Origin: an uncultured Nitrososphaerota archaeon
GTDB taxonomy: Archaea > Thermoproteota > Nitrososphaeria > Nitrososphaerales > Nitrosopumilaceae
Direction of reading: 5' to 3'
DNA length: 64,000 nucleotides
Assembly (NCBI GenBank): GCA_963701075.1
Contig: OY969559.1
Coordinates: 640,001 to 704,000 of the forward strand
In this document: positions 1,202-59,390 of the stretch, one piece after another
Position numbering within the stretch: the stretch's first letter is position 1
How the letters are laid out: each line of letters begins with the position of its first letter
Translations under genes and position numbers: made by a program
Notes under the pieces: model-generated
The model's input: the letters and a program-made list of their open reading frames with translations, nothing else
What the model was told of the DNA's origin: nothing
The model's database searches: none

Positions 1202-2084
1202 ATGCGAGTTCTTATTCTTGGGTCTGAAGGTTTTGTGGGTCACAACTTAGTACAAGGTCTTAAAAACTTACATCACGTTTCAACTGCTGATCAGCTGGAA
1301 CAGGGACATGAAAAAAATTATTCTAAATTAAATATAATAGATTATGAAAACGTTGAAAGAATTGTAAAAGACGTCGACGTTGTGATCAATCTAGTCGCTC
1401 ATACGTTAGTTTCTTCTTTAAGTGATTTTACACAGAATGCTCAAGTCAACATTATTGGCTTGTTAAATGTATTAGAGGCATGCAGAAAAAACAACATCAA
1501 GAAAATAATATTCACTTCTGCTTCATCAATTGTTGGAGAACCACTAGAATTCAAAGTTTCAGAAAAACACTCTGTTACTCCAAAAACAGACTTACGGAAT
1601 CACAAAAATGGCATCGGAGCATTACTTGAGACTCTATAATGAGATGTATGGTATGGATTATGTTGTCTTTAGATTCTTTAACATCTATGGACCTTATCAG
1701 AAAAATGGCCTAATACCATCATTATATTCAAGGATTATGACAGAGCAGCCAGTTACTATATTTGGTCACGGAGATCAAATACGTGATTATGTGTACATTG
1801 AAGACATAATTCCATTCTTTGAAAAAGCCATATCTACTAAAATATCTAATAATTTGATCCTAAATATGGGTGGGGGTAATGGAAGTACTATCATAGAAGT
1901 TCTCAACCATATCTCGAAAATTCTAAGTATAAAACCAAAAATAGATTTTAAGCCAGCTAGACCGGGAGAGATTGGCAACTTTGTTGCTGATACCACCTTA
2001 CTAAATTCCATCTTCGGTATGGTTCCTAACACGCCTATTGAAGAAGGTTTGAAGAAAACCGTAACGTGGCTAAAAAATAATTAA
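1202..2084 (+). CDS. NAD-dependent nucleotide-sugar epimerase/dehydratase (apparent +1 frameshift at 1588-1592, probably a sequencing error)
   Basis: GSEGFVG Rossmann motif in ORF 1202-1639 and RFFNIYGP in ORF 1608-2084. Changing AGaCT to AGCT restores PKTAYGITKMASE, the YxxxK catalytic motif. Confidence 0.9.
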
Positions 2085-2159
2085 TTATCATAAATCTATC
2101 TAATAATTCATCCAAATCACTAAATTAAATTAGAAGTATATGGGCATCAAAATTGTTAC

Positions 2160-3503
2160 TTGTCTAGAAATCATAATTTAAAATCATTAATACTGAATCG
2201 CAAAGTTCTAGCAATTTATGGTTTAGGTAATGTGGGTGGACCGATAGCAGCAGCATGGCTTCGAAAAGGAGTTAAAGTAATAGGTGTAGATATTTCTCAA
2301 GAATTACTTTCACAAATAAAATCAGGGGTTTCACACAAAAAAGAGCCATTGGTTTCTGAAACTTTCACTAAATCTTTACGTGATGGTAATCTATCATTAA
2401 CCATAAACGGTACTAAAGCCTCCCAGAATTCAGATATCAAAATTGCTGCCGTTCCAGTAGGCCTAAGGCATAACGGAATAGATCTCAGGGCATTAACGTC
2501 CGTAGCTAAGAATATTGGTTCTGGATTGAAAAAAGGCGATGCTGTTGTGATATCTCCATCCTTACCTCCTGGAACATGTGAAAAATTAATCCTACCTATT
2601 TTAGAAAAACATAGTAAACTTAAAGGAGAACGAGATTTTTACTTCATTTATAATCCTGAAAGAATCTTCGAGGGAAGAGCTCTGCAGGATATAGAAGAAA
2701 ATTATCCTGCAATAATCTCTGGTCTTGGACAAAAAAGTTTATCTTTTGCTAAAGAAATGTTAGAAATAATTTCAAAAAAAGGTGTAATTAGTATGTCTTC
2801 TCTTGCTAACGCAGAAGCCGAAAAATTATTTGAAGGAGTTTATAGAGATGTTAACATAGCACTTGCAAATGAACTTGCAGATTTTTGTGAAAAAGTAGGG
2901 GTTAATTACTGGGAAGCAAGAAAAGGTGCAAACTCACAACCGTTTTGTCATTTGCATTATCCGGGAACTGGTGTTGGAGGTTTGTGCATACCGGTATATC
3001 CAAGATTTGTAATCAATGCAGCTAAGAATATAGGAACACATTTGAAAATGGTTGAATTTGCCAGAAAAACCAATGATTCTATGCCAAAAAAATGTGTTAA
3101 TGATGCACTTGCTTTATTTAGAAAACATCGAATAGATCCAAAAGGAAAAAAGATCGCTGTTTTAGGTCTAGGGTTTCGTGGCGAAGTTACAGATACCCGA
3201 CTTTCTCCCACATATGATGTTGTCAACGAATTCATTGCAAAGGGCTGTGTAGTAGCAATACATGATCCATACATATTTGAAGATACGAATTTACCTGCAT
3301 CAATAAGACTTAGTTCTGATTTAAAGGAAGTAACTAAGAACGCATCTCTTGTTTTTATATCGTCAGACCATAAATCATACTCTAAATTGAATTCAAAATC
3401 ATTTTCAAACACCAAAAAACCACTTTTAGTTTTTGATGGTAGGCATATACTGGATAGAAATAATTTTAAAAATTCATCAATCCTGACAATTGGTTTACGT
3501 TAG
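2160..3503 (+). CDS. Nucleotide-sugar (UDP-glucose/GDP-mannose/UDP-ManNAc family) dehydrogenase
   Basis: GLGNVG, NPERIFEG, YRDVNIALANE and GVGGLCIP (catalytic Cys). Confidence 0.92.
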   Translation: MSRNHNLKSLILNRKVLAIYGLGNVGGPIAAAWLRKGVKVIGVDISQELLSQIKSGVSHKKEPLVSETFTKSLRDGNLSLTINGTKASQNSDIKIAAVPVGLRHNGIDLRALTSVAKNIGSGLKKGDAVVISPSLPPGTCEKLILPILEKHSKLKGERDFYFIYNPERIFEGRALQDIEENYPAIISGLGQKSLSFAKEMLEIISKKGVISMSSLANAEAEKLFEGVYRDVNIALANELADFCEKVGVNYWEARKGANSQPFCHLHYPGTGVGGLCIPVYPRFVINAAKNIGTHLKMVEFARKTNDSMPKKCVNDALALFRKHRIDPKGKKIAVLGLGFRGEVTDTRLSPTYDVVNEFIAKGCVVAIHDPYIFEDTNLPASIRLSSDLKEVTKNASLVFISSDHKSYSKLNSKSFSNTKKPLLVFDGRHILDRNNFKNSSILTIGLR

Positions 3504-3676
3504 TTCGCTTACAGATCTCTTCATCCATTTTCACTACAATGATAATAGTATAGTATGCTACGAATAGATCTATTTGCAGTTTACGTTAGGCCAAATTTAG
3601 AAAGGTTAGAGAGAGCATGTTTGAACGTAACATATCATTTGAATCATATATAATATAGTATTATGAAATTCGACGT

Positions 3677-4732: not shown

Positions 4733-4765
4733 GGTATTTATTTCAAGGCTTATTCATGTCATTTC

Positions 4766-5395: not shown

Positions 5396-5398
5396 ATA

Positions 5399-5638: not shown

Positions 5639-6391
5639 GAGTTGACTAGATTGTAGAAGTATAATAATTGTTAGTCTCATAGAAATCCTATTTTCAATAA
5701 CAGGCCAAGAATTTTGCAAGATCTATGAAGAGTTTAGCTTGTCTGTCTAATACAAGCCCCAAAGTCATTGAAAACACATAATCTGGTATTTATGAGAATA
5801 AAAGATGTTACTCCAACCAAAAACCAAAAGCTAAAGGTTAGCAAACAAAATTCTATATACCACAATTAAAGGTATTTTTCAACATGTACCCATCAAACAG
5901 GTTCCGTGTGTTATCTCTATCAAGAGTGAGAAAGATCACACAAATGTCCGCTTTTCTAGCTACATGCGGTACAATAATAGTACTACTAGGTGGAATCTGG
6001 GATTCAGCATCACATGAACTCAAAATTCCAGAGACATTCTGGACGGTTCAACACGCAACCATCTATTCTGGTGCATCCTTGATAGCTTGTTCTGCTATTG
6101 CAGCAATGCTAGTTTTGAATCATTGTGAAGATAAATTCATGAAAAAAGGGATAATAATGATCTTATTGGGTGCTATGTTACAAGTAATAGGTGGTTATGC
6201 TGATTACAATTTTCATGAAATTTATGGAATAGATGGCCTTGTCACCCCATCGCATCTTACCGTGGAAACTGGCTTGTTGCTTAGTGCAATTGGAGGTTTC
6301 ATTACACTATCCAAGTCTAGGAATCATATTCTTCTAAAAATATCTTCAATATCAATAATGGCAATACTCTTGTCAGCAGCATGGATAGGAT

Positions 6392-6409
6392 TAGGAGTTA
6401 CGCAGTTGA
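6392..6409. repeat. IS terminal inverted repeat (left)
   Basis: Exact reverse complement of 7459-7476. Confidence 0.9.
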
Positions 6410-7393
6410 GCCCAAATGACAGAACGGACGGGATAGATAGTTCCGTATCGCATACCGGATTATGGCACTCTTTGCCTCATACCAGCTCGTCCCTGTCTCT
6501 ATCCGGTATGCCTCAAGACGCAGAAAAGCCCTGACAGACAAGAGTATGTGACTGATTATCGATCTTGCCTTTCTGACATGCGACCTTTCAATACCACAGC
6601 ACTGCTTGATTCCACGGTGATACACCTCTACTGACCATCCATGTTTTTCAAGCTCCTCCCTTCTTACCGCATTCATTGACAGATTGTTTGTTGCCCAGTA
6701 CTCAGCGTCTCCGTTTTTGGAAACTGTCCTGAATACCTTTATGGTTCCGTACTCTTTGAGGTAGACTGTTCTTCCATGCTTTGGTATTTCCATGCTACTC
6801 ACTGACACGTTCTTACCATCTTTCAGACTGACAGTCCTGTTGCTTTTCAGCCTTGTCAGAAAATACCATCCAAGCTTTGCGACAAGATGGAGGTTTCCAA
6901 TGCTGCAGTACCAACTGTCAAAGAGCACATACAGCGGATTCATGCCTCTCTGCCTGGCCTTTACCAGCATCTCCTGGAAGCGGTCGTTCTTTGTAAGACC
7001 TGTGACAGGTGCGTCGTAGATCCTGCAATCACACGGTACGCGCTTTTTTCCATCTGTCCACAGAAGCGTGATGAGGTTTATTCCCTTGACCACACATCTG
7101 TGCTTGCCACTCCAGTGCCATGTTACAAGGTCCATCTTTGAGGCATACGGCTTGTCAAGAGTGGTATCGTCGACTACAATAACACCCCCGCTTCCTATCA
7201 TTGCCTTTGCTTCCTTCCAAACCGTCTCAGTGTCTTGAGTCTGTCGTTGTAGAAGGCGCGTAAAGGAGTCATGGGATGGGATTTTGTACAGCTCCACGGG
7301 CTGGCATCTTGCAGCCTCTGTACATGTAAAGGTCTTCTGGGATGCTATGAGGAACTGTATGTAGTCTAGTACATCACATCTTGATTGGTTCAT
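6398..7393 (-). CDS. IS701-family DDE transposase
   Basis: SHDSFTRLL, VVDDTTLDKPY, LFDSWY and WSVEVYHRGIKQCCGIE; the stop codon lies inside the TIR (STA*). Confidence 0.92.
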   Translation of the reverse strand: MNQSRCDVLDYIQFLIASQKTFTCTEAARCQPVELYKIPSHDSFTRLLQRQTQDTETVWKEAKAMIGSGGVIVVDDTTLDKPYASKMDLVTWHWSGKHRCVVKGINLITLLWTDGKKRVPCDCRIYDAPVTGLTKNDRFQEMLVKARQRGMNPLYVLFDSWYCSIGNLHLVAKLGWYFLTRLKSNRTVSLKDGKNVSVSSMEIPKHGRTVYLKEYGTIKVFRTVSKNGDAEYWATNNLSMNAVRREELEKHGWSVEVYHRGIKQCCGIERSHVRKARSIISHILLSVRAFLRLEAYRIETGTSWYEAKSAIIRYAIRNYLSRPFCHLGSTA

Positions 7394-7458
7394 TGCAAAG
7401 AGGGGATCGTCTTGGATCTAAGATTTATGGAATGAATCCTTAGGCTATCTTGTGAAGG

Positions 7459-7476
7459 TCAACTGCGTAACTCCTA
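7459..7476. repeat. IS terminal inverted repeat (right)
   Basis: TCAACTGCGTAACTCCTA followed by the TSD AGGAT. Confidence 0.9.
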
Positions 7477-10715: not shown

Positions 10716-11331
10716 TTGTTTCTTTTTCTACGTCACGGACAGGCCAAAAATAATGTAGAACAAATTCTTGCAGGACGAGCGACAGGATATCCTCTAACAG
10801 ATCAAGGCATTAAACAAGCCGAAAAGATAGTCTGATTTTCTCAAACCATTTAACATATCTGCCATCTATTCAAGTCCAATAGAAAGAGCAGAACAAACTA
10901 CAAGTATTGTGGCAAAAAAACTGGGACTAGGTTATAGCATAGACGAAAGACTGACAGAAATCGACATGGGAACTCTATCTGGAATGACTTTTGATGACAT
11001 GTTTTCAAAACATGGAAATATTTTTCTCAAGTTTTATGAAGGACATCCAATAATAGAGAAAAATGGAATCGAACCCTTTGCCAGTATTAAAAAAAGAGTT
11101 CTTGACTTGGTCGAACATTGTTCTAAAAAACATCATGATGAAGATATATTATTTGTAACTCACATGGATCCAATCAAATCCATGCTTTCTACTGTCATGC
11201 AATTAAAGCCTGAATCTTTATACGAATTAATAATTAGAAATGCATCTTTGACCATGTTCAAAAAAGAACAATCTACTCTTTCTATAATATCAATTAACTC
11301 CATGTCTCCAGAACGTTACCAGAAAGAATGA
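10716..11331 (+). CDS. Histidine phosphatase (phosphoglycerate mutase-like) family protein; apparent +1 frameshift at 10829-10833
   Basis: The N-terminus, missed by the ORF track, reads LFLFLRHGQAKNN...PLTDQGIKQAEKI. Changing AGtCT to AGCT joins it to SSPIERAEQT...LTEIDMG...FVTH. Confidence 0.87.
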
Positions 11332-12448: not shown

Positions 12449-15400
12449 ATGGTAAATAACAAATCACGTAGGGTAATGTCAAAAGTAGCATTTTTTTTGA
12501 TATGTATTCTTCTAATATCTATAATTCCAAAACAGATTAACGCATATTATGATGTGGACATTCCAAACCAAATGCAAACTTCTGCTCCGGAACAAACATC
12601 TGGTCTAATAACTTTTCAGCCTGTTTCAGTCGAAAATTCTGAAAAGAGATACATAATTTTTGGTTCAGGACCAATTTCGGATATAGCACAAAGTGCCGAT
12701 AATCTAATTTATGGATTAAACTCTGGTCATGGATCATTTGCAGTAGGTATTTTCAATCCAGACGAAATCTCAAATCTAAAACTTGATGGTTATAACGTAA
12801 TTGAGGATCTTCCATTGGAATTCGATTCTGCGCAAATCAATTCTCCTGTGTCCAGTGATGTCTCTAGGGTAGGAGATATACTTGGTTCCAATAAGGTAAT
12901 TCAACAATATAATTACACAGGCAATGGTATCAAGGTGGGAATAGTTGATACTGGAACAGACTTTTCAAACCTTGATATGAAATCTTCTCTTGCCAGAGAT
13001 GAAAACAATATTCCTATCATGATTGATGCAGATGGTCAAGGACTAGTGTTAACAAATGCAACATTCATTGCAAATATTGGTAATAATGGTGTTATTCAAA
13101 ACTACACACAGCCAATTCCAAAAAATATAACCTCTTCTGTCTATGTAAATTCAAACGGAGTTTTTCTTGATCTAAATAGGGAAGGAAAAGGGACGAACAT
13201 CCCGGTATATAATTCACAATATCCTAAAGGTGGTACACCTGTAGTAAACGGGACAGTTTCTGATGATTACAAAATAGGCAAAGACGCAAGGCATTTTATT
13301 GTGTCAAAAAGCGGGATGTATCATTTTGGGATGATGTATGAAAGTGTTTCACAGGGCCAACTTTCAATACTACAATTAGTCCCTGTCCTCGTGGTTGACT
13401 CAAAGACACCAGGTGTATACGATACCATTATTCCAGACATGTATGATTCATACGAGGATTTTTTGAGACTTGAGAACGTTTTATCTCCAAAATATGATTT
13501 TGATTTCACTACACAAACACCAATTACATTAGGAAATGGAAACGAATTTTTAGTATATGATAAAAACCACGATGGAAATCCGATATACAGTGCGGGTACA
13601 GTTGGTGCACGAGTTCTTGATTTATACGGTGTAATTGCAAAATCAGCTAAAATCGATAAAAAAATTGGGGCAATAAACGGGACACTACTTCCTCCTCTTG
13701 ATCCACACGGTAATTTTTTTGGTGTAATGTATGATTATGGTGGACATGGAACTGCTACTGCAGCATCTATCACATCTCAAGGAAAACAGCAGTATGATAT
13801 CTATGGAAATTCCACAAAATATGTAATTCAAGGTATTGCCCCTGGAGCTAAGATAGTTCCAATAAAGGCATTATGGATTGGTGATGCGATATATGGATGG
13901 TTATGGGCAGCAGGATTTGATCAGAATGACAACCATTGGAAATTCTCAGGAAATACTCGAGTAGATATTTTATCTAACAGCTGGGGGATTTCCACTTTTC
14001 CTGCACTAGGGTCAGTGCCAGGTCTTGATATCCAGTCACTTTTACTTAGCGCACTTAATGTCCCAGGTTCACTGGATAAAAAATATCCTGGAATATTGAC
14101 TGTAAGTAGTTCAGGTAATGCTGGACCTGGATACGGAACAATAGGAAGTCCTGACGCTGCACCCTTTGGTCTTACGGTGGGGGCTGCAACTGATAATGTC
14201 TTTGTTGGTTATGGTCCTTTTAAGGGCCAACCAAGATTTGGAAATAATACTATTTACTATGGTGACATATCAGGTTTCTCAAGTAAGGGACCATCATTAA
14301 TAGGAGATCCAAAACCTGACATAATGGCAGTAGGAGAATACAGCTTTACACCAACCTCTGTTACAAAATACAGCAAAAATTCAACAGGATCGTTTTCTCT
14401 ATTTGGCGGAACAAGTCTTGCAGCTCCTCTTGTAGCCGGTTCAGCTGCAATCGTAATGCAAGCCTTACGCGACAAGGGAATTTCCTACAACCCATTTATG
14501 GTGCAAAACATACTAATGTCTACTGCAACAGATCTGGGAAATGATCCTTTTGCACAAGGATCTGGGCTAGTTAATGTAACAAGCGCAGTTAACTATGTAC
14601 TGGGAAATGATGATACGTTTGCAGTTTACAACAACGCGACATATTCTAATGTGCAGAAAATACTGGAACCAGCTATTCAGCTCAATGAACTCTTCTGCGT
14701 TTGGATTGAAGATGTTTCAGCTGAGGAAATACATCATTTCCAGAAACACCTTGGTTTGCTGGAAGACTATATCCAGGGGACAGAGCTACTGCAACCTTTA
14801 CCATTGAAAATCCAACCGATAATAATATCGAAATAACAATAGAGCCTCAAAAACTCGATCTGATGAAAATTTCTCAATATAATGGAACAACAGAACCTCG
14901 CTTACAGGATTCTCTAATTAAAAAACAAGGGGTTTACAGGCCTGATTATGTGCCACTTGCTCAAATAACAAACCATACAAACCTGCTGTCCTTTTTCCAA
15001 AAACAAAGTCCAATTCCGTATGATGCATCTTTGATGGTACTTGACCTTACATTCCCATTCTCCGAGTTCATGAATTCTTCTGCCAAAACCTACGCTGATG
15101 ACATGAAAATATCATCTCTCTATGTATATGACTGGAACAATAAGCACAATGATACTCAACCAACATACCAAGAACTCTCGCTTGTCAACAGGGGAGGTTC
15201 TTGGGGAACAGTTCAAGAGGTAAGAATTTCTGATCCGAATTCAAAATTTGGGCATATACCGCTAGTTGGCGTATACCCTGTACCTACAAGGTACTCATAT
15301 TGGTCTGGAGATACCAAGAAAAATTCTACTTCGATTGATTATACTATTACCGCTAGCTATTACAAAAAAACACAATGGAATGAGGTATGGCTTGATTCAA

Positions 15401-16710
15401 ACAACATGGAAGTAAAACCTCATAGCCAAGCCATCATGTCTGCCACTCTTGTTGTTCCATCTGATAAAAAAGCAGGAGTATACCAAGGATTTATCTCATT
15501 TCAAGATGGATCCCACACAGTTAACGTACCTGTATCATATGTTGTGTTAAAAAAATTACAACCAAAAGATCTACCAACTGTTATCCAGGGTTCAAATGGA
15601 AATCCTCTTTTTGGAAACGGCTATGTGGGAGGGGGATTTGACATGTCTAACCGTTATAATGCAGGTGATTGGAGGGAATATTATTTTAATATTGCTGACA
15701 AAACCATAAACACAGCTACAATGATTTTTTCTTGGAAAGATCCTGACACTAATTTATCAGTATTTGTCATTGATCCACAAGGAAGAATAATTCAAACAAA
15801 TGTTCCAGCTGGAGTATTGGGGCAATTTCAGGGATGGCCAAGTGGAGACTGGCTAGGTCCAAGCACGCCGTTTAGCGAAGGAGGAGGATTTTATCCAGTA
15901 AAAAATAAAGATGCGACATCAACCGAAGTTTATGCGCCAATTAATCAAACAGGGGTATATTCTGTCCTGATTCATACTACACTGTTTGGAGGAGAATCGG
16001 TTGTAGAACCAATAACAATGGCATCCAAGTTTTCAACCATTTTACCAAGCGAGAATTCACCACAGATAAATCTGGAAATTCCACAATTCATCAACAATAC
16101 CTACAAGATCACGCCAACAATAATTGGCCAAAATATACAAGATGAGAAATATTATCTAGATTCATCGGAACCAAAGATACTTAATGAAACTGCATTTTCA
16201 ACAATAGTTGAAAATCTCTCAGAGGGATCACACGATCTTAAAATTGTTGTATCAGATACAGTAGGGCATGTTGTTTCAAAGGATTTCAAATTTGTAGTAG
16301 ATAATACGCCACCAATAATTATTTTCGAGTCGCCAGTAAATGGTTCTACCGTTTCAGGGATAATCAATGTTAATCTAAGTATCAATGAAACCAATCCATT
16401 GGAAAAGGACTGGCTTGCAGTAAATCTTCCGGGCCAGACAGTTTTTGATAATGACACAATACAATATGACACTAGAACACTTCAGAATGGACCGTACTAT
16501 ATCACGGCTGTTGCTAAAGATAAAGCCGGAAACGTTGCTAGCGAAAAGATCGCAATTAACGTAAATAATTCTATTCCAAGTACTGGCTCTGTACAAGGCA
16601 AAAGCGATCAGAATTTTACAACTTTGATCGAAATATTGGTTGGAATTACAATAGCGTCTTTGATATCCTTTATTACTTTTAAAAAATTCAGATTTTTAAG
16701 AAGAACCTAG
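12449..16710 (+). CDS. Large membrane-anchored S8 (subtilisin-like) serine peptidase; two apparent +1 frameshifts (about 14678 and 14723)
   Basis: Triad VDTG / GHGT / GGTSLAAP and oxyanion SSGN. Frames join as ..ILEPAISSMNSSAFGLKMFQLGNTSFPETPWFAG..; C-terminal Ig-like domains and TM anchor. Confidence 0.88.
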
Positions 16711-16749: not shown

Positions 16750-17355
16750 ATGGCTGAACAAGATACTAGGGGTACAGTCACTAGGCGAGACTTTCTTAAA
16801 CTTCTAGGCGCTGCGGGTGTTGCAACTACTTTTGCACCCTTTGTTCCATGGGGCCAATTCATGCCAAACCCTTCAAACATAGTGCCATCAAGAGTTCAGG
16901 TAATATTGCCAGACGGAACAGTGGCCAACGTTAAGACTTTTCCAAAGAATAGTTCTGAAGTTATAACATATCCGAAAAGTGGAGATCCAGTTCTTGATCA
17001 AGAGGCATTTAAACAGTGGCAGTTTGTTCGACTACCTTCCGAGTTAGGCGGTGACGCAGAGGATGTCAGTGCTTTTCGTGTTTATAGTATGGTATGTTTA
17101 CATTTGTGGTGTTTGTGGAAATACTGGCCTCAGGATGGTAGGAAAAGAGGAGAATGTCCCTGTCACGGAAGCATGTATAATATGATAAATGGAAAAGCAT
17201 TTGCAGGTCCTGCATCTCTTCAAGCTCCTCCATCAAATGTACTAGCAACACTTTATCTTGAAGCTGATGACACTGGAGATCTATGGATATTGCCAGCAGT
17301 GTGGAATGTCAACGAAAATGGAATAGTGGGATATGGTCGTTTCCTTAAAACGTAG
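16750..17355 (+). CDS. petC: Rieske iron-sulfur subunit of complex III (Tat-exported)
   Basis: TRRDFLK Tat signal; CLHLWC and CPCHGS cluster motifs. Confidence 0.93.
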   Translation: MAEQDTRGTVTRRDFLKLLGAAGVATTFAPFVPWGQFMPNPSNIVPSRVQVILPDGTVANVKTFPKNSSEVITYPKSGDPVLDQEAFKQWQFVRLPSELGGDAEDVSAFRVYSMVCLHLWCLWKYWPQDGRKRGECPCHGSMYNMINGKAFAGPASLQAPPSNVLATLYLEADDTGDLWILPAVWNVNENGIVGYGRFLKT

Positions 17356-18898
17356 AAGCGGGTTTGCAGATTTCTGCTACTGGATATGGGACGGGTTAGA
17401 GAGAACTGTATTCATTGGTACAAAGTTCTCATTTCCAGCTAGATTTGTGAGTCCATTTGGATTCCTTGGAATGTTGACATTTGTCATGTTCATAATACTG
17501 GGAGTTACTGGTGCATTGCTGATGTTCTATTATGAACCGATATTGGATAGGGCGTGGGACAGTGTAGTGAAAATCAATAATACTGTTCCATATGGGTTCA
17601 TGATCAGAAATATTCATTATCATGCATCAAACGCAATGGTTCTTCTCGCAGTTCTTCACATGTATTATCAGTATTTTAGTGGAAGATACAAGATAAGAAA
17701 TGAGATTATCTGGGTAACAGGAGTTGTACTGGGAACAGTAACAATTCTAGAGGCCTTTACTGGTTATGACATCATCTTCAGTGAACGTGCAGAGCTTGCA
17801 ATTAGCATTGCAGCTTCGCTTACTAATTCTATGCCTGTAGTTGGGCCCACCATACGCGATGCAATGTTTGGTTCTGGCTTTGCAGACTTCATATTGAGAT
17901 TCTATACGTTACATGTCTTCATTTTACCAGTAGTAATGCTTGGATTGATGGCAGTACACCTGCCTAGATTCATGGTATTTGACGTACCAATGGTGATGGC
18001 AATTTCTGGTGCAGTGTTAATAACAGGTGGAGTGTTTCCAGTTGACCTGGGCTCAAAGTTCCAGCCCACTGTACCGCCAGGTATCACTGTACCTGAATGG
18101 TATCTTACGGGAATCTACGCTTTCCTTAGAACTGAATATGATAAATTTGTAACTGGAGTTTTGTGGCCAGGTGTATTCATTGTAGCGCTAGCTATGACAC
18201 CATTCATTGACCGGTACAAGAAATTCTCTTGGAAAGAAAGACCACTAGTTACAGCCTTTGGAATAACTGGTATAACCCAAGTCATGGTAACCACTTATTG
18301 GGGATTTTACATCTCGCCAGATGTTACAAAACCACTAGTTGCCAGGCTTGTGATAGATCCAATATTCTTCTACTCTATAATGTTACTTCTTATACCGATT
18401 GGCTTTGGATTTTCATACATGATGATATCACTTGCCAAGGAAGCAGAAAGAAAGGCAAAATTAGCAGCTTCAAAAGGACCTCATAAAACAGCCCAGATAA
18501 ATTTCTCAGGTAAATGGATAAACTGGCTTATCGTTGCCCTCCTGATATTTCAAGTGTACATAAACATCGCTGCCTACAACGCCGTATTGGCAGGTATGAA
18601 AAACTTTTCGTTATTCTTGGTAGGACTAGGTCTCATGGTGTTTGCTGGTATGTTCCATCTCTACAGATATGGTCTAAGCGAGGCAAAGAAGGCACCTGCG
18701 CCTCCTCCACAACCACAAGCCGAATCTCCAAAGTCATTAGAAGGACCTGAACTAGCAGGAAAAGTACCACCGCCAAAGGAAGATTCTATAAAACCGCCAC
18801 CATCTCAACCGTCTGCGATCGCACCTGAAATAAAAGTCGCGAACCTAGAGAATTTGAAAGATTCCGTAATAGGCAAGTCTGACCTCAAAAATCCCTAG
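17333..18898 (+). CDS. petB: Cytochrome b subunit of complex III with extra C-terminal TM helices and a Pro-rich tail
   Basis: RNIHYHASN, heme His residues and PEWY motif; overlaps the Rieske gene. Confidence 0.93.
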   Translation: MVVSLKRRSGFADFCYWIWDGLERTVFIGTKFSFPARFVSPFGFLGMLTFVMFIILGVTGALLMFYYEPILDRAWDSVVKINNTVPYGFMIRNIHYHASNAMVLLAVLHMYYQYFSGRYKIRNEIIWVTGVVLGTVTILEAFTGYDIIFSERAELAISIAASLTNSMPVVGPTIRDAMFGSGFADFILRFYTLHVFILPVVMLGLMAVHLPRFMVFDVPMVMAISGAVLITGGVFPVDLGSKFQPTVPPGITVPEWYLTGIYAFLRTEYDKFVTGVLWPGVFIVALAMTPFIDRYKKFSWKERPLVTAFGITGITQVMVTTYWGFYISPDVTKPLVARLVIDPIFFYSIMLLLIPIGFGFSYMMISLAKEAERKAKLAASKGPHKTAQINFSGKWINWLIVALLIFQVYINIAAYNAVLAGMKNFSLFLVGLGLMVFAGMFHLYRYGLSEAKKAPAPPPQPQAESPKSLEGPELAGKVPPPKEDSIKPPPSQPSAIAPEIKVANLENLKDSVIGKSDLKNP

Positions 18899-38451: not shown

Positions 38452-39412
38452 TTAACTTGTATTGCAATAGATTAATCCATCAAAGTCTATCTTTGCAATA
38501 AAACAGTCACTGATTTTTTTTAAATTCTCTAATGTGATGGTTGCATTAGACTCATCTACTAGGGAAATTATACAACCGCCTCCTCCTGCTCCTGTTATTT
38601 TAGCTCCATACGACGTCTTGGATGCTTCTTTTATGAGAAGATCAAGCTTATCTGTTGACACATTTATTTTCTCTAATAATTCTTGATTTTCTGATATTAG
38701 AGAACCTAGTTCGTTTAGATTGTTTTCTTTCAATTTCAACAATGCCTCTCTTATCAATTTCTCCTCCTGTTTGCACATTTCCGCAAACATCTTTTCATTC
38801 TTGTTTTTAAATTCCCTTACCTTCAAAACAATTTCTCTTGTACTGTGAACCTGATTTGAGTTTGCTATTATCAAACTAAGATTATTTTTAAAATCAATTT
38901 TCTCAAATCCATTTTTGTCATATGACACAAGTCCACCAAAAGTAGAGACGGATGAATCTGCACCTGACACATCTTCAAATATTACACGTTCAGATTCGAT
39001 AGATCTCTTTAGAATCTGTTCCTTTGACTTTTTATCAAATAGTCCAGCAACTGATGCTGTTACGGCAACGCATGCAGCTCGAGGATGATCCAAGACCTAT
39101 TCCTGCAGGAATATCTGATTTTAGAACTATCTCTACGCCTTTGTTTTCATTGAATTCTTTCAAGGTTTCTTTTGTAATGTAAAAAAAAGGCTTCATAAAT
39201 CTAGTTGATATTGAATTCATGTCTGACGATGCATCCAAAGCAATCTCGGCATTTCCCAGTTCTGACTTTATGCGTATCTTTGGTTCATCTAAAAACTGAG
39301 AAGTTGCTGTAATCCTCTTATCTATGGCACAAAGTATTGCCTTGACACCATATACTACAAAATGCTCTCCAAAAAGAATTACCTTACCTGGAGCTGATGC
39401 TGTTGATTTCAT
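38452..39412 (-). CDS. mvk: Mevalonate kinase; apparent frameshift at about 39080
   Basis: APGKVILFGEHFVVYG, restored PAGIGLGSSSAAC, SGAD and KITGAGGGG. Confidence 0.92.
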
Positions 39413-40930: not shown

Positions 40931-42168
40931 TTAAATCTCGACCATTCCACGTATTAAATCATACTCTGAGATACGCAGTAACTCATTTAGTTTAGTATTC
41001 TTTCTCCGCCCATAACACCCGCCTTTAACATCTTGGATTTCGTAGCAATTCCAATATGTGATATGTGTGAATCAGATGATTCTCCAGATCTATGAGATGT
41101 GATCAATTTTATATTATTTTTGGACGCTTCCTTTGCAAATTCAATAGCATCGTAAAGACTTCCTGCTTGGTTTACCTTTAAAATGGCCGCATTACATGCT
41201 TTTTTCTTTGCAGCATTCTTCAAAATTTCAGTATTAGTTACTAAAAGGTCATCTCCAGTTATCAAGACGTTCGGAAACTTTTTTGTTAAGATGGCCATAT
41301 CTTCAAAGGCCTCCTCATGAACTGCATCTTCAGCATACGCTAATTTGTATTTCTTTATTATTTCAGAAGCAAAATCAATTTGCTCTTCTGTCGTATTCTC
41401 AAAACCTGCCCTGTCATAGACATATTTCTTTTTATTCTCGTTCCATTGTGTAGTTGAGGCAAAATCCACTCCTAGCGAAACCTCTTTTCCTAATGTAAAT
41501 CCTAATTGTTCGCATGCTCTTGCAGATACTTCCAATGCTTCCTCATTGTTGAGTTTTGGGGCCCAACCACCCTCGTCCCCCCTCCCATTTGTGAATCCGG
41601 GGTCTTTTTTTGCTAGTATCTTCCCAAGTTCTTTGTGCACTGAAAAATTAACTTCGATGGAATCTCTTATGGTTTTTGAACCAGTAGCACAAACTAGTAT
41701 TTCTTGAATATCTGGAGTTCCATGACCAGCATGAGCCCCGCCGCCTAAAATATTTCCCAAGGGAAATGGAAATCTAAGATCAGAATCTTTGGTTAATAAT
41801 TTGAACATTGGAATTCCGTCTGATTTTGCTGCAGACTCTATTGCTGCTATAGTGAGAGAAAATGCAACCGAACCACCAATTTGCGAATAATTAGAAGTTG
41901 AATCTATTTCTCTTAGTGTTTCATGAATAGATTTTAAATCAGAAGGATCAAGTCCGATGAATTTTTTTTCGTTTGCTTTTAAGATCTCAAGACCTTTCTC
42001 AGGCGCATTGTCTGGAAAACCTATTGCCTCATATTTTCCTACACTTGCACCAGATGGTGCACAAACTCTTCCCATGTATCCATTGTTTGTGATTACATCA
42101 ACTTCGATTGTTTTACATCCTCTGCTGTTGTAGAGTAATCTCCCCTTTATTGACGCAACCCGTGCCAT
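40931..42168 (-). CDS. eno: Enolase; apparent 1-base deletion at 40994-40996 truncates the C-terminus
   Basis: NSRG, PSGASVG, GDEGG, GDDL, KVNQAG and SHRSGE; restored end GERIAKLNELLRISEYDLIRGMVEI*. Confidence 0.93.
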
Positions 42169-43326: not shown

Positions 43327-43936
43327 AAGTTTACCAGCTTGAAGTGGGAAGTATGCAAAATTTTACTTACATAGTTGAGGATGAACAAACAAGTGAAGCT
43401 GTAATTCTTGATCCTTCATGGGATCTTGATCTGATAGTGGAGATAATCGAGAAGAACAGTCTACAGGTAAAATATATCATAAACACTCATCATCATTTTG
43501 ACCATACTATAGGCAATGATGCCATGGTAAGAAAGACTGGAGTAAGATCTTACAGTATGCATCTTCAACCCTAAAAAACGATGTAACAGTATCTGAAGGT
43601 GACAAAATTATATTTGGAAATTCAGAACTTACTGTTATTCATACCCCGGGACATTCAAAAGACAGTATGTGTCTTGTTGGAGATGGCAAGATCTTCTCAG
43701 GTGACACATTATTTGTGGGAAACTGTGGCAGAATTGATCTTCCAGGAGGTAGTGCTAAAGAGCTTTATCACAGCTTATTTGATCTCATTTCAAAGATGGA
43801 TGAGAACCTGACTCTTTATCCTGGTCATAACTATGGTAATTCGCCAACGTCTACAATAGGAAGAGAAAAGAAAACCAATTTTGTACTTCAACCTAGAACA
43901 GAAAAAGAATTTTTAGAATTTATGAGTAGTGATTAA
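43323..43936 (+). CDS. MBL-fold metallo-hydrolase (glyoxalase II/ETHE1-like); apparent 1-base deletion at 43541-43543
   Basis: NTHHHFDH, restored KTGAKILQ, HTPGHS, SGDTLF..CGR.D and YPGHNY. Confidence 0.88.
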
Positions 43937-52063: not shown

Positions 52064-55000
52064 ATGCATGAATTATTCGACAGGGTTAATTCCAAGAATG
52101 ATTTCACTATTATATTGTTGCACAAAACATGGACTATTGTCTTAGTTACACTGCTCGTCTTTCCATCCGTGTTATCATATAATGTAAAGGGATACTCAGA
52201 TCATCCAAATCTATTCGTATCTGCAGAAAATAGCGTTTTTCAAAATCACTTCTCTGGTGCAATGGTAGTTGAGGTAATAATCGAAGGGGATAATACTCAA
52301 CTGAATCAGGCTCAAGGTGAACCTAATGTCAATGTAAATGGAAGACAACTTAGTATGGTTCAAGGATCAGATGGCTATTGGTATGCATTTTTTGCTAATA
52401 CCGCTGCAGCTAAACAGGCAGATCAAATAGCATTGGGTGGTACGCCTGGCCAAAATCTAGACTTTGGAGTTTTCTGCTCAGGATCCACTCCTTCGTCTGT
52501 ACTGGGGGTTGACTTTTCGCAAACTGACGGTGTTGCAATTCCTGACTCTAGTGGTCTTTCAGGCACCACTCAAGGGCTTGCATCATTTAACTCATGTAGT
52601 GGTACTCCACAACCGCCATCTGTTAATCAGAATAATGTAGTTAAAAATCCTCCTTCTTTGAATACAAATCCAAATGTAAGTGCAGGCCAAATTGGAATTA
52701 ATCCAAATATATGGCCAACCATTCAACTTTTCTCACTGAGTAATGATGTTAATGTAGAATACAATGCCGCTACAGGAACACAAAGTGTTGATCTTACGTA
52801 CTCTGAAATTCCAAATATTTCCATAACCCTTGATAGGAATGCATATCCTGCAGGCTCTGACGTTTTTGCAACAATAAATGATATTCAATTAGATGAGGAT
52901 CCAACTGCAATAGATTCGTGGACATTTAATGTCAACAATCCTGAAGCAACTTTCTATCAAGCATTTTCAGAATCTGGCGGAAGTAATATCTCAGGGCTTG
53001 TAAATCTTGCACCCTATCTTAGTAGCTTAGGTTTTCAGGACAATGGAAAGGTGGAAATGAATCTTGGTAGTGTTGTTAATCTGAAGACAAACAACCTTCA
53101 AACAAGTTCATCAATAACAGCAAATGGGATAACTTACAACCAATTAGTAACATTTGTAGAAACTGGCCCAAACACTGGAGTTTTTGAGAGTGATTATGAT
53201 AGCATTTCCACAATTGGCATTTTGCAGAATGCTCCTAGAGGACAATCAGGTAGTATAGAATATGATCAACAATCAACATCCATTGTTGCTGGCACTGCAC
53301 CTACTGCTGGTCTTACTCTTGGTTCTGGTCAAGGTCAGTTTGGGCCAGGACAAAAACAAACCATTACGCTATCTGATAGTAATCAGGTTTTAAACTCGGG
53401 AATTATTGAGAGTCTAAATGACTATAGAAGCTCCGCTGTAGTTCCCACATTAAAGATTGGAAGCCCAATGACACTGACTGGCGCTTCTGATGTGAATTTT
53501 TATCCAAATCCAAACAGTCTTTCAAACCCGATCTCTGTTTCTTCTAGTGTTCCTGACGCAAACTCTGCCAGATTAATAGTAGATACCAGATCTACACCAT
53601 CTACTAATTTTTATGAGATTACATTGAATCTTGGAATCACTACTGCTACTCTAAAAGATCTATTCATAGATGCCAGTCAACCTAATTCTGACGGGACAAA
53701 CTGGGTTAATTATGATTTAAGATCGTTTCAACAACAGCTAGGAATTAATTCCTTCTCAGATACTAGTATGACTCTTCATTTTGGTAGTGCTTCTAGTAGT
53801 TCATCTGTTCAAATCATAGCCCCTGGTACCATTTCTTCTGGAAATGGTCTTGTTCAAATAAGCGATACTGCAGTTGCTTCGATAGAATCTCAATCTTCAT
53901 CATCTCCAGTGTATCTAGAAATTAATTTTGGTAGTCCAGGCGGTAGCATTTCGGATGAAACTGATGTGCAACCAATCGTTTTCGATCTATTTTCTTTTGG
54001 TATGCAAAATGGGCAAACAGTGAATAATGCTGTATATCGTGCTGAACTTCAAGAAACAGCTGCCGGCTCGGGTATTTTTACGGGTACAATTTCATATGTA
54101 GAAGCAAATCAATTAAATCAATTTGATCCAAATCTGATAAAAAGTCTACAGACATTTGGTAACAATATAGTATTTTTTGTAAATGGTCAAATGGTAGGCG
54201 AAAATGGAATCAACTTTTCTATTTCAGGTTTATCGGCTGGCCAACAAACTACTGTTACCTCGAAAAACAGTCTTCCAACAACAACAGCTACAGTAACGCT
54301 CAATTCTGCAAATTATAACATTGGCTCGCCAGTCACAATAACATTATACGATCCAGATCTTGTATCAGATGCTAATACTATCCAATCGTTTACAACTGTA
54401 AGTGATCCAAATTCTCCTGCGGTGGATACGGTAGGAGATGCTAGTGGAAATATACTCCTTGAGGTATGGATAAAGGGATTTAGATTTCATCAATGTACAA
54501 TAAATGGAGTATTTCATGGGGGACTCGCCGCTACAGGTTTCACACTTACTGAAACTGCACCAGGTTCAGGAACATTCCAAGGTATATTCAAGATGCCATC
54601 TTGGATATGTAACGAAGATGGTACTGCCTTGATATCACCTATTGGAGGATCAGTACAAGTTTGGTATCATGACTGGATGGACGCACTGGGAAGATATGTC
54701 ATAATAGGTTCAACAGTTGCTTCGTCTTCACAAACAAATTCATCATCCACTCAGACATCACAACCGTCACCTCAAATATATCCGCCTGGTGTTCCACAAG
54801 GAGCATATCTTTCAAATATTAGCCAAGCTGCACAAATTAGCGACATAAATGGACTTCCTCTGTTACAAAGTCCTAAGGTAGGTCAGACAATAACCTTCAA
54901 GGATGTTATTTCAAATGGCGATTATCAAAACGGTCAGAAAATTTCATACATTGTTCAGGTAAAAGACAGTCAAGGCGAAGTTGTATACTTGAAATGGGTT

Positions 55001-55162
55001 AATGATACAATAAACCCATCAAATGAAGTAAATGAGCAAATTCAATGGACTCCAACTATTCCAGGAAACTATTCTGCTGAAGTATATGTGTGGGATGGAA
55101 TGGATTCTCTAGTTCCCCTAACTGAGAAAGATGGGTACCAATTCCAGGTCTTGCCTCAATAA
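52064..55162 (+). CDS. Large secreted S-layer-related surface protein
   Basis: Signal peptide; S/T/N/G-rich; repeated ETGPNTGVF / ETAAGSGIF / ETAPGSGTF motifs; C-terminal WTPTIPGNYSAEVYVW domain. Confidence 0.75.
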   Translation: MHELFDRVNSKNDFTIILLHKTWTIVLVTLLVFPSVLSYNVKGYSDHPNLFVSAENSVFQNHFSGAMVVEVIIEGDNTQLNQAQGEPNVNVNGRQLSMVQGSDGYWYAFFANTAAAKQADQIALGGTPGQNLDFGVFCSGSTPSSVLGVDFSQTDGVAIPDSSGLSGTTQGLASFNSCSGTPQPPSVNQNNVVKNPPSLNTNPNVSAGQIGINPNIWPTIQLFSLSNDVNVEYNAATGTQSVDLTYSEIPNISITLDRNAYPAGSDVFATINDIQLDEDPTAIDSWTFNVNNPEATFYQAFSESGGSNISGLVNLAPYLSSLGFQDNGKVEMNLGSVVNLKTNNLQTSSSITANGITYNQLVTFVETGPNTGVFESDYDSISTIGILQNAPRGQSGSIEYDQQSTSIVAGTAPTAGLTLGSGQGQFGPGQKQTITLSDSNQVLNSGIIESLNDYRSSAVVPTLKIGSPMTLTGASDVNFYPNPNSLSNPISVSSSVPDANSARLIVDTRSTPSTNFYEITLNLGITTATLKDLFIDASQPNSDGTNWVNYDLRSFQQQLGINSFSDTSMTLHFGSASSSSSVQIIAPGTISSGNGLVQISDTAVASIESQSSSSPVYLEINFGSPGGSISDETDVQPIVFDLFSFGMQNGQTVNNAVYRAELQETAAGSGIFTGTISYVEANQLNQFDPNLIKSLQTFGNNIVFFVNGQMVGENGINFSISGLSAGQQTTVTSKNSLPTTTATVTLNSANYNIGSPVTITLYDPDLVSDANTIQSFTTVSDPNSPAVDTVGDASGNILLEVWIKGFRFHQCTINGVFHGGLAATGFTLTETAPGSGTFQGIFKMPSWICNEDGTALISPIGGSVQVWYHDWMDALGRYVIIGSTVASSSQTNSSSTQTSQPSPQIYPPGVPQGAYLSNISQAAQISDINGLPLLQSPKVGQTITFKDVISNGDYQNGQKISYIVQVKDSQGEVVYLKWVNDTINPSNEVNEQIQWTPTIPGNYSAEVYVWDGMDSLVPLTEKDGYQFQVLPQ

Positions 55163-55164
55163 AT

Positions 55165-56323
55165 CTAGAAATTGTACTTGTTCTTGTAGGGGGAAACAGC
55201 ACGGAGTCTCTTGTACTACTTTCTTTAGTACCCCTACAGTCTCATCTATCTCTTCTTCAGTATTAGTAATTCCCACGGTCAAACGTAGAGAACCGGTTAT
55301 CTGTTCATGTGAAAAGCCCATTGCCCTAAGTACATGTGATGCCTTCTGTACTCGTACAGAGCATGCTGAGCCTGTAGAAGCAGCAATTCTATTTTCATCA
55401 AGTTTAATGATAAGATCCTCACCATTTACGCCAAGAAATGTAAAGTGAGCATTATTAGGAATTCTCTTTTCAATATGTCCATTAAGACTAGTCCCTGGTA
55501 TTTCGGATAGAACCCGTGTGATCAGTTTAGAGGTGAGATTCCTGAAATAAGATGTGTTTTGACTCATGTTATCCTTTGCTAACTTGCAAGCCATGCCAAA
55601 GCCTGCTATGCTTGCAACATTTTCAGTTCCTGACCTTAATCCATTTTCTTGGCCTCCCCCTAGTATGAGAGGAGAAATTGTAATTCCTTTTCTAAGATAT
55701 AGTGCACCTACTCCCTTAGGACCGTTTATTTTATGTGAAGAGATAGAAAGCAAATCAACTCCTAGTTCTTTGACATCAATTGGAACTTTGCCTACTGCTT
55801 GAACAGCATCTGTGTGGAAAATTATGTTGTTGTCATGTGCTACCCCAGCAATTTCTTTTATTGGTTGAATGGTTCCAACTTCATTATTTGCAAACATTAT
55901 CGTAATAAGGCACGTATCTTGTGAGACTTCTTTTCTAACGTCATCCACATTTACAAGACCATATCTGTCAACTGGAAGATATGATACTCTGTATCCTTCT
56001 CTTTCAAGATGTTTACAGGGTTCTAGTATTGCATCATGTTCTATAGAAGATGTTATGATATGTCCGCCTTTGCTCTGGAAAGCTATGCCATAAATTGCGG
56101 TGTTGTTTGATTCAGTACCTCCTGACGTTAAAAGAATTTCTTTACTGTCGGCATTGATCAAATCAGCTATTCTCTTTCTAGCATTTTGGATGGCTGCATT
56201 GGCAGTCCTACCAAACTTATGTATGGAAGATGGATTTCCGTATTGTTCTTTAAAGTAGGGAATCATCTCATCTACTACTTTTTGATCAACAGGCGTAGAT
56301 GCAGCATTATCTAGATAGATCAA
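55165..56323 (-). CDS. iscS: Cysteine desulfurase (IscS/NifS group); apparent frameshift at 55205-55209 near the C-terminus
   Basis: YLDNAAST, TSGGTESNN, HTDAVQ, SSHKINGPKG and STGSACS; restored end QELRAVSPYKNKYNF*. Confidence 0.93.
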
Positions 56324-57120: not shown

Positions 57121-58349
57121 TTTAGATGAAGAGTCTGTCTTACTTCGGTAGTAATCAACGCATTTGCCTCTCTAAAGGTAATGCCTAGAGCTTCAGAAAC
57201 TGACTTTATGTTGTTAGCCTCTACTTTGAAATGTTTTGTTACACCATCATTTTTTATTACCTTGCATTGCACTGTAAAGTTTCTCCCCCAAATTGTAATT
57301 GGAACTGAAACGATAATTCTCGGAATGATGCGACGATTTGAGGTCCTGATTCTAACTCCCAGCGTGCCAGTTTCGGAGGTAATGGTACTAATCACATCGT
57401 TTAGATTTGAGGGATCGCATATGACCGAAACAAGATTGGTTGGCCTGCTTTTTTTTGTAATAGCTGGTGCTACGGTAACATCTTTTGCTCCCATGGCAAT
57501 TAATTTGTCGATCATTTGTCCTATTATCTCTCCTGAAACATCGTCAATATTTGTTTCAATAACTTGAACCATGTCTTGTTCAAATTGGTGTGTTAATTCT
57601 CCTCTGACAATTTTTAAGACATTTGAAAATCCTTCAAAATCCTTGCTACCTGCACCATATCCAATTGATTTAATCTTCATAGATGGATAAAATTCAGCAC
57701 ATTGACTTGCAAGGTTTACTAGTAAACTTGCGCCCGTAGGAGTAGTAAGCTCTTCTCTTGCACCGCCTCCAGTCATTATTATGTCAGAACCGCAAAATAT
57801 CTCTAGAATTGCACTTGCAGGATTTGACGTAATTCCATGTGAGAAGCTCAGGGTTCCACCACCAACAGCAACTGGAGTAGAAATGATCTCGTCAGAAAAA
57901 ATTTTTAAATCATCAAGAGCTATTGCAGAACCAATAATATCAATAACAGTGTCGATACTTGACGCTTCATGAAAATGGACTGATTCTATTGGTTCTCCAT
58001 GGATCTTGGATTCTGCTCTGATTAAAGACTTGATACTCTCCTTTGCAAATACTTTGGCTCTCTCAGATAATTCTATTTTATCAGATGTTTGTAATATACA
58101 GTCTTGAATCTCGATCCCCTTTCTTTCATGAGGTTCTTCCTTTATGTCTAAAGCCAATCTAGTAGCCTCAGTTCCATGTTTTGTTGTCTTTTCGAAATTG
58201 ATATTCTGAATCTTTGAACCCGCAAGATAACTTTCAGATGTGTATATACCTTCAATTATTTTGGATTTATTGGCGCCTATGTTTACAAGAGCAGAAAGTA
58301 ACATGTCACCAGAAATACCTGCCACTTGAGCATCAATTACAAGAACCAT
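57117..58349 (-). CDS. larC: LarC nickel insertase (NPN cofactor biosynthesis)
   Basis: GISGDMLL, AESKIHG...VHFHE, ELTTPTGA, GYGAG, ETNIDD and ETGTLGVR. Confidence 0.9.
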   Translation of the reverse strand: MVLVIDAQVAGISGDMLLSALVNIGANKSKIIEGIYTSESYLAGSKIQNINFEKTTKHGTEATRLALDIKEEPHERKGIEIQDCILQTSDKIELSERAKVFAKESIKSLIRAESKIHGEPIESVHFHEASSIDTVIDIIGSAIALDDLKIFSDEIISTPVAVGGGTLSFSHGITSNPASAILEIFCGSDIIMTGGGAREELTTPTGASLLVNLASQCAEFYPSMKIKSIGYGAGSKDFEGFSNVLKIVRGELTHQFEQDMVQVIETNIDDVSGEIIGQMIDKLIAMGAKDVTVAPAITKKSRPTNLVSVICDPSNLNDVISTITSETGTLGVRIRTSNRRIIPRIIVSVPITIWGRNFTVQCKVIKNDGVTKHFKVEANNIKSVSEALGITFREANALITTEVRQTLHLK

Positions 58350-58476
58350 GATTCTGTAAGCAGATTTGAATGAATATAAATTATAATTCTGTACTAAGGA
58401 CAAGTTCTAATTTCGACACTGATTTTACCGGGAATAATAGTGAAGTTTAATTAGCGAATTAAATTGACGCCTGATT

Positions 58477-59390
58477 ATGATTACAATTATTGGCTCAGGT
58501 AAAGTGGGAGGAGCAGCAGCGCTTTTTACTGCATTAAGAAAAGTAACAGACGAAATTCTTCTACTAGATGTTGTACAGGGACTCCCACAAGGAGAAGCAA
58601 TGGATCTTAATCATATGTTATCTGAAAAGGGAATAGATGTAAACATTCGAGGTTCAAATGATTATTCTGAAATGAAAGGATCCGATATTGTAGTAGTTGT
58701 AGCTGGATCAGGACGAAAACCAGGTATGACACGAATGGATCTATTGAAAATTAACGCATCGATTGTAAAAGGAGTGGTAGAGAACATAAAGAAATTTGCA
58801 AAAGATGCAATGATAATTCCTGTGACTAATCCTCTAGATCCTATGGCATATCTTACCTACAAAGTTTCAGGGTTTCAAAAAAACAGAGTATTTGGTATGG
58901 GTAACATGCTTGATCTATCTAGATTTGTCCAATTTATTCACGAGTCAACAAACTATTCTCGTAATTCAATTCGTGCCTTGGTAATAGGAGAACATGGAGA
59001 AAATATGTTGCCACTTCCAAGATATTCTACAGTATCAGGTATTCCTCTGACTTCTATATTGCCAAAACAAAAAACTGATGAAATTGTGCAAAGTACAAGA
59101 CAAGTTGCAGCCAAAGTGATTGAACTCAAAGGTGCAACAGTTCATGCCCCCGGAAATGCCATCTCTGCCATTATTGAGGCTGTAATGAGAGATACAAGGC
59201 AAGTTATACCAGTAGTACGTATCTTGATGGTGAGTATGGCTATTCCGATGTTTCGATTGGAGTACCAGTAATATTAGGCAAGAATGGAGTGGAAAAAATC
59301 ATAGAATTAGATCTGGATTCAAATGAAAAGGAATGGTTCAAGAAAGGGGTAGAAAGTGTCAAGACTGCAATTTCTGGTCTTGAACTCTGA
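58477..59390 (+). CDS. mdh: Malate dehydrogenase (LDH-like); apparent 1-base deletion at 59214-59216
   Basis: [22 protein letters not shown] and GEHG; restored [24 protein letters not shown] to the stop at 59388-59390. Confidence 0.93.

Follow-up and report, generated by a model that had tools for sequence, protein, structure and literature searches.

The 64,000-base stretch at positions 640001-704000 of contig OY969559.1 (G000:C1:640001-704000, hereafter the window) carries 12 single-base insertions or deletions (indels) and at least two dinucleotide substitutions at the tetranucleotide AGCT. They are very probably errors of a consensus built from long reads only, the genes themselves being intact, with N4-methylation of cytosine (m4C) in AGCT as the likely cause. 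The window belongs to the genome GCA_963701075.1, a single contig of 1,915,938 bases with a G+C content of 38.6%, whose host would be, to judge by the names of its homologues, an ammonia-oxidising soil archaeon of the genus Nitrosotalea. An earlier note, made from the window's sequence, had listed the 12 indels in or beside AGCT, had named the genes broken by them and had proposed a DNA modification of the host with intact genes as the explanation. All 12 sites read as described, the named genes are split or truncated at each of them according to the list of open reading frames (ORFs) and the Pfam matches, and none of the indels sits in a homopolymer. The indels are absent from short reads, frame breaks follow the same motif genome-wide and the genome encodes a fitting methyltransferase; these three lines agree with each other and argue for the proposed interpretation.

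Short-read data were taken as Logan contigs of the public runs X1, X2, X3 and X5 and compared with positions 1700-21699 of the window (20 kilobases, kb). Runs X1-X4, all from one study, contained 96-98% of the sampled words, and X5, from another study, contained 67%; X1 and X2 were marked as potential source runs of the assembly. Loose ends of the short-read contigs carry CTGTCTCTTATACACATCT, which we take to be a Nextera adapter, so that the runs are regarded as Illumina libraries. Accurate short reads had been named in the earlier note as a check, and at all five indel sites within the compared stretch the indel is gone from the contigs of X1-X3 (extra bases T10831, C14678, G14723, G21154 and C21695). 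Regarding X5, position 14678 is the only one of these sites that is covered, with the extra base absent; this run lacks coverage of 10831, 14723 and 21154. Seven differences from the window are shared among runs in the 20 kb, and all seven lie at AGCT (five indels and two TG>CT substitutions); the sole other difference is a C>A at 20746 seen in X5 only.

The window contains 199 AGCT sites. In the read-supported sequence of the stretch 1700-21699 there are 65, and seven of these 65 are miscalled in the assembly. Miscalling affects 7 of the 31 sites in a TAGCT/AGCTA context, whereas 0 of the 34 sites in other contexts are affected (Fisher p = 0.004). The errors take the forms AGCT to AGACT or AGTCT, and AGCTA to AGCTGA, AGCTTA, AGTGA or AG-TA. 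Outside the 20 kb, AGACT/AGTCT errors also occur in other flanks (1590, 32862 and 55207), which suggests that the fifth base influences the form of the error. The two substitutions, which had not been on the list of the earlier note, read AGTG at 5925..5928 (in ORF 5884..6534) and at 17566..17569 (in ORF 17333..18898) where the true sequence is AGCT, both in an AGCTA context. Positions 5927-5928 and 17568-17569 are C, T in all four runs, and both sites are AGCT in the relative G006, which is 92-96% identical to the window.

Frame breaks were then counted over the whole genome with 3,029 stop-to-stop ORFs (minimum length 100 amino acids) from G014, a complete relative of 1,972,585 bases (250 N), which were compared by tblastn with the genome under study. 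A junction was defined as a frame change between adjacent matches of one ORF, with matches required to be at least 40% identical and neighbouring junctions counted as one. Of the 163 junctions obtained, 134 are of the insertion type and 29 of the deletion type. AGCT or AGNCT lies within 8 bases of 129 of the 163, whereas same-sized intervals at shuffled positions gave 31.8 on average and never more than 48 (200 trials). The enrichment at AGCT, for which the earlier note had proposed a check, is also seen among the insertion-type junctions, 119 of 134 of which have an AGCT-like motif (22.9 expected, maximum 37). By form of the motif, AGACT/AGTCT was observed 56 times (7.8 expected), AGCTGA/TCAGCT 50 times (1.6 expected) and AGCTTA/TAAGCT 10 times (0.9 expected). 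The excess of AGTA/TACT at deletion-type junctions (14 of 29, 7.2 expected, maximum 14) is borderline. Among the 16 palindromic 4-mers compared, AGCT alone was enriched (70 versus 15.3), GATC being found at 23 junctions with 19.9 expected. With both flanking matches restricted to at least 50 amino acids, 93 of 108 junctions were AGCT-like (19.0 expected). In the reciprocal control, in which ORFs of the studied genome were compared with G014, no significant enrichment was found (13 of 61 junctions AGCT-like versus 7.9 expected, maximum 19). The AGCT signal is therefore not a product of the method itself, whose noise level is about 60 junctions.

The scan recovered 8 of the 12 known indels of the window, in 7 junction records. 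From this recovery, the 129 motif-associated breaks and the density of 12 indels per 64 kb in the window, the genome probably contains, by extrapolation, 200-400 indels at AGCT. Two additional junctions in the window (9962-9983 and 33022-33033) have one weak or short side (43 and 12 amino acids, respectively) and coincide with no indel relative to G006; they are accordingly treated as noise of the scan. A comparison of 5-mer and 6-mer frequencies between the genome and G014 for an excess of AGACT/AGTCT was dominated by differences in G+C content and was dropped.

Matches to G006 were kept if they were at least 400 bases long and at least 88% identical, and they cover 60,051 of the 64,000 bases of the window. 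This relative supports the same correction at 11 of the 12 indel sites, AGCT being present in 9 of the 11: the extra base is missing from it at 1590, 10831, 14678, 14723, 21154, 21695, 32862, 39080 and 55207, and at 40996 and 59216 it has an additional C that completes AGCT. All 12 indels are thus missing from relatives, the comparison at 43541 being with another genome, G013. No further frameshifting indel was found between the window and G006 within conserved coding regions, and the remaining differences of one or two bases lie between ORFs or at ORF ends, with one exception. This is a two-base difference at 52109, not at AGCT, 45 bases into ORF 52064..55162, which probably lies upstream of the true start codon. 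With 52109 read in this way, the statement that every frameshift sits at AGCT holds for the window. Regarding substitutions, the two AGTG sites are the only conspicuous ones across the window. The remaining AGCT differences from G006 are symmetric (43 versus 41) and are read as natural divergence. An imbalance of AGCC in the window with AGCT in the relative (8 versus 2) was also considered; no such difference appears in the short-read contigs over 1700-21699.

Within the stretch covered by short reads, the first indel is AGTCT at 10829..10833 (extra T10831), which leaves a histidine phosphatase gene without its N-terminal part: the His_Phos_1 match starts at profile position 64, the first 63 positions being missing. 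T10831 is absent in X1, X2 and X3, G006 reads TAG-CTG, and the protein scan places a junction at 10829-10837. A subtilase (S8) gene contains two +1 errors, namely C followed by AGCT at 14678..14682 (AGCT from 14679, extra C14678) and AGCT followed by G at 14719..14723 (extra G14723). C14678 is absent in X1, X2, X3, X5 and G006, and G14723 in X1, X2, X3 and G006; the scan junction is at 14680-14728. G006 has diverged from AGCT at both positions, and the organism's own short reads have AGCT at both. With both extra bases removed, ORFs 12449..14836 (subtilase) and 14863..16710 (immunoglobulin-like domains) become one gene of about 1,400 amino acids, and a single G014 ORF aligns across the junction with 749 and then 659 amino acids. 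A beta-CASP/RMMBL nuclease gene on the minus strand is broken twice, by AGCT followed by G at 21150..21154 (extra G21154) and by C followed by AGCT at 21695..21699 (AGCT from 21696, extra C21695). G21154 is absent in X1, X2, X3 and G006, and the RMMBL and Beta-Casp domains lie in separate ORFs. At the second break the loose ends of X1-X3 contigs read AGCTCAAAGG directly after 21694, from which it follows that C21695 is absent from the short-read data; G006 reads TAAT-AGCTC, the scan junction is at 21692-21693, and the nuclease gene is in three pieces overall according to Pfam.

The other seven indels lie outside the stretch compared with short-read contigs. AGACT at 1588..1592 (extra A1590; G006 CAG-CTTAC) splits an NAD-dependent epimerase gene into ORFs 1202..1639 and 1608..2084, with positions 1-130 and 148-238 of the Pfam Epimerase profile in the two ORFs. 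AGACT at 32860..32864 (extra A32862) splits a UPF0147 gene on the minus strand, positions 1-47 and 47-81 of profile PF03685 falling in two frames; G006 reads GAAG-CTCT and the scan junction is at 32862-32864. At 39076..39080, AGCT followed by C (extra C39080) splits a GHMP (mevalonate) kinase gene on the minus strand, with GHMP_kinases_N and GHMP_kinases_C in separate ORFs; the base is absent in four relatives (G006, G013, G001 and G008). Also on the minus strand, AG-T at 40994..40996 (missing C, 40996) truncates the enolase near its C-terminus, the Enolase_C match ending at profile position 262 of 296. The corresponding sequence is TTTAGCTA in G006, G013 and G008 and TTTGGCTA in G001, one base more in all four. 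AGTCT at 55205..55209 (extra T55207; G006 GGAG-CTCT) alters the C-terminal end of a cysteine desulfurase (class-V aminotransferase, Aminotran_5 match), again on the minus strand. AG-T at 59214..59216 (missing C, 59216) truncates a malate/lactate dehydrogenase, with the Ldh_1_C match ending at profile position 111 of 174, a scan junction at 59214-59226 and GTAGCTACG in G006. The remaining site, AG-T at 43541..43543 with a missing base, breaks a gene of the metallo-beta-lactamase fold (Lactamase_B match at profile positions 5-75 only) and coincides with a deletion-type scan junction at 43538-43541. It lies past the end of a G006 contig and outside the coverage of the short reads; G013 is one base longer here, its own sequence being GCTGCC and not AGCT. 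AGCT may nevertheless have been the original sequence, since an added C would give the alanine codon GCT where G013 has the alanine codon GCC.

That the indels are real, whether as pseudogenes, as strain variants or as mutations produced at AGCT by cutting and repair, is conceivable insofar as they are present in the assembly and its completeness (CheckM-type estimate) is 94.96%, compared with 97-99% for several relatives. We give this explanation hardly any credence, as the contigs of four runs, which come from two studies, contain this DNA with the extra bases absent, and each correction gives back the reading frame of the relatives. Enolase, mevalonate kinase, cysteine desulfurase and malate dehydrogenase are among the affected genes, and well over 100 conserved genes would have to be broken in a genome of 1.9 Mb.

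A second possibility is that base-caller or polisher fails at AGCT(A) for reasons of sequence, independently of any DNA modification; the same motif specificity and the same absence from short reads would be expected. Outside AGCT, however, the consensus equals the short-read contigs across the 20 kb, bar the one variant seen in X5 only, which makes a general weakness of the caller unlikely. In PMC11610603 (Hammerhead) and PMC11610573, motif-confined errors are put down to methylation with controls of amplified DNA, in which the modification-induced errors vanish. The genome moreover encodes a fitting N4-type methyltransferase, and relatives of the organism methylate AGCT (PMC6329791). Only a slight probability is therefore left to a failure unrelated to modification. 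The general premise of the earlier note, that modified bases cause motif-specific errors in nanopore data, is documented in PMC6591954, PMC11610603 and PMC11610573; in the first of these (Wick et al. 2019), about 70% of the errors in nanopore consensus sequences were located in Dcm motifs.

The search for methyltransferases yielded a candidate outside the window, a gene of 288 codons in an open frame without stops at G000:C1:910512-911378 (loci L138 and L269). Its product matches PF01555 (N6_N4_Mtase) over the full profile (positions 1-221 of 221, 140 bits) and contains TSPPY at residues 28-32. In the motif S29-P30-P31-Y32, compared across 23 homologues, the last three residues do not vary and S29 shows a conservation of at least 90%. 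A motif IV of the form SPP(Y/F), as opposed to (D/N)PP(Y/F), is typical of N4-cytosine enzymes. Relatives in the PDB include structures 8s9m and 8s9n, named 'DNA cytosine-N4 methyltransferase'. Homologues are 76-97% identical in Nitrosotalea (81% in the cultured Nitrosotalea devanaterra) and about 50% identical in Nitrosopumilus, Nitrososphaerales and Nitrosomirales. The survey of homologue loci in named genomes comprised 80 loci kept out of 578 relatives, and no strain with a characterised AGCT enzyme of the M.Mma5219II, M.Nca01I or M.NspBD3I type was found among these 80. The gene is located directly downstream of that for the chromatin protein Alba and is embedded in a group of shikimate-pathway genes. 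The scan of 11 flanking ORFs (about 5 kb on each side), two of which have no Pfam match, showed no nuclease domain. By its sequence the 288-residue enzyme looks like an N4-cytosine methyltransferase, and it may act on AGCT.

Two further candidates were considered in the same search. A Dam-like adenine methyltransferase of the D12 class (PF02086) is encoded at G000:C1:14478-15212 (L188), also outside the window; despite its presence, there is no excess of frame breaks at GATC (see above). The second match to PF01555 belongs to a THUMP/UPF0020 RNA methyltransferase and was rejected as a DNA enzyme. A C5 methylase (PF00145) was not found in the genome.

In the explanation that we favour, the archaeon would N4-methylate the cytosine of AGCT on both strands, with the 288-residue SPPY enzyme, an apparent beta-class orphan of the core genome, as the likely writer. 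Modified AGCT would shift the signal in the pore, and a base-caller and polisher not trained for such a signal would introduce the observed errors. GATC, presumably methylated by the Dam-like enzyme, would remain free of errors, as might be expected if base-callers have been trained on Dam-methylated DNA. A single contig of 1.9 Mb with errors that short reads repair is consistent with native nanopore sequencing without short-read polishing, which it does not prove.

Alternatively, AGCT may be modified by another mark, or by a derivative bulkier than plain N4-methylcytosine. Such a mark would explain the dominance of indels, as the errors here, mostly indels and affecting 7 of 65 sites, are harsher than the substitutions that PMC11610603 and PMC11610573 describe. 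The search for DNA methyltransferases, however, yielded only the PF01555 SPPY enzyme and the Dam-like enzyme, with no C5 methylase, and single-molecule real-time (SMRT) studies of related archaea class the mark at AGCT as m4C (PMC6329791 and PMC8919816). We therefore assign a different mark a small probability.

Several observations weigh against methylation-induced consensus errors as the explanation. Runs X1 and X2 may derive from the same sample as the assembly and are then independent in method, not in material. The short-read comparison covers 20 kb of the window and 5 of the 12 indel sites. Frame breaks without an AGCT-like motif number 34 of 163; some of these would be deletion-type breaks in which the motif was destroyed and others noise of the scan, as the control yields 61 junctions. 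Indels dominate here, whereas the cited papers mostly describe substitutions at methylated motifs. One homologue of the 288-residue enzyme bears the database name 'Modification methylase MjaI', which would suggest another motif. Finally, AGCT methylation itself, the kind of mark, the specificity of the enzyme and the sequencing platform are all deduced from sequence data.

The AGCT mark in thaumarchaeal methylomes, which the earlier note had mentioned, was confirmed in PMC6329791, PMC8919816 and PMC11033074. According to PMC6329791, bin BD3 (Nitrosoarchaeum) has m4C at 5974 of 6224 AGCT sites in addition to N6-methyladenine (m6A) in GATC, together with two orphan methyltransferases, and the pattern was called likely to be conserved in the group. 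PMC8919816 reports AGCT m4C and GATC m6A in two thaumarchaeal metagenome-assembled genomes (MAGs), with 82-91% of AGCT modified. PMC11033074 lists the AGCT m4C enzymes M.NspBD3I, M.Nca01I and M.TarMY3I for the strains BD3, SPOT01 and MY3. Ahlgren 2017, as represented in papers citing it, is the source of a methylome with AGCT m4C and GATC m6A. The genome described here resembles these methylomes of ammonia-oxidising archaea in having one enzyme of the N4/N6 family and one Dam-like enzyme, both without a restriction partner, and in the motif AGCT that its errors imply. The published cases are Nitrosoarchaeum, Nitrosomarinus, marine MAGs and MY3, whereas the organism here is a Nitrosotalea whose methylation is deduced from its error footprint. 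No publication joining Nitrosotalea with a methyltransferase and a methylome was found in the library searched.

Regarding the errors, the closest known case is that of Dcm (CCWGG) in nanopore data, in which, as here, errors cluster in one short motif, methylated in that case, and the rest of the consensus is accurate (PMC6591954). The cause given in that paper is a base-caller untrained on the modification; here the cause is concluded indirectly. The cases also differ in the motif (AGCT), in the presumed mark (m4C and not 5-methylcytosine), in the source (an archaeon from a soil metagenome) and in the predominance of indels over substitutions. As with Hammerhead (PMC11610603) and PMC11610573, the idea is that positions of errors can reveal a methylation motif without raw signal. 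Methods of the Hammerhead type, as described there, use strand-specific mismatches of reads, whereas frame breaks in a consensus and short-read contigs were used here. Both elements, long-read errors tied to a motif and m4C at AGCT in archaea of this group, were thus already known, and Nitrosotalea is a new instance.

Recurrence of the pattern near the methyltransferase gene was examined in 71 Nitrosotalea-like loci, with the ORFs of five loci as queries and matches of less than 45% identity or less than 25 amino acids dropped. At least one junction occurs in 17 of the 71 loci, and six junctions are backed by at least five query ORFs. AGCT-type sequence is present at four of these six well-supported breaks, in three assemblies: AGTCT and TAGCT at 832-834 and 4619-4622 of L228, AGCTGA at 2677-2678 of L235 and TTTACTGG at 4971-4972 of L250. 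The two other well-supported junctions (L191 and L199) have no AGCT-like sequence. All four AGCT-type breaks lie in assemblies with contig names of the 'contig_N' style, which, as a guess from this naming, are long-read assemblies. The data suggest that the same artefact exists in other public Nitrosotalea-like genomes, and with three other assemblies of the genus showing the same pattern the problem is probably systematic for genomes of these archaea based on long reads only.

Two further features of the window were recorded. An insertion sequence of 1,084 bases at 6393-7476, with a DDE transposase ORF at 6398..7393 (PF01609), has four identical copies in the genome, is not present at this place in G006 and has a short-read depth 4-7 times that of its flanks in X1-X3. 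At 42600-42630, 31 bases missing from G006 are flanked by the direct repeat TGTGATTTGG; the segment is intergenic and lies just after a conserved tRNA-like segment (about 42458-42546).

In practical terms the result is a quality flag for an assembly that needs correcting, and involves no new mechanism. Although used as the representative of its species, the genome would contain the estimated 200-400 artefactual frameshifts. Gene calls, pseudogene counts, completeness and metabolic reconstructions are wrong at its AGCT sites, the genes for enolase, mevalonate kinase, cysteine desulfurase and malate dehydrogenase being affected in the window. Regarding the organism, AGCT methylation is known from marine and freshwater lineages and from one further lineage of Thaumarchaeota; the footprint would add the acid-soil genus Nitrosotalea and indicates the gene for the 288-residue methyltransferase as the candidate responsible. 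More tentatively, and with the odds rather against it, N4-methylation of AGCT might be a lineage-wide housekeeping mark of ammonia-oxidising archaea, set by a core orphan enzyme that is encoded beside Alba without a restriction partner and is conserved across Nitrosotalea, Nitrosopumilus, Nitrososphaerales and Nitrosomirales. In function the mark would then be comparable to those of Dam or CcrM, serving replication or the control of genes and not defence. If this is true, error footprints in metagenome genomes based on long reads only could be used to map the AGCT mark in uncultured lineages without raw signal.

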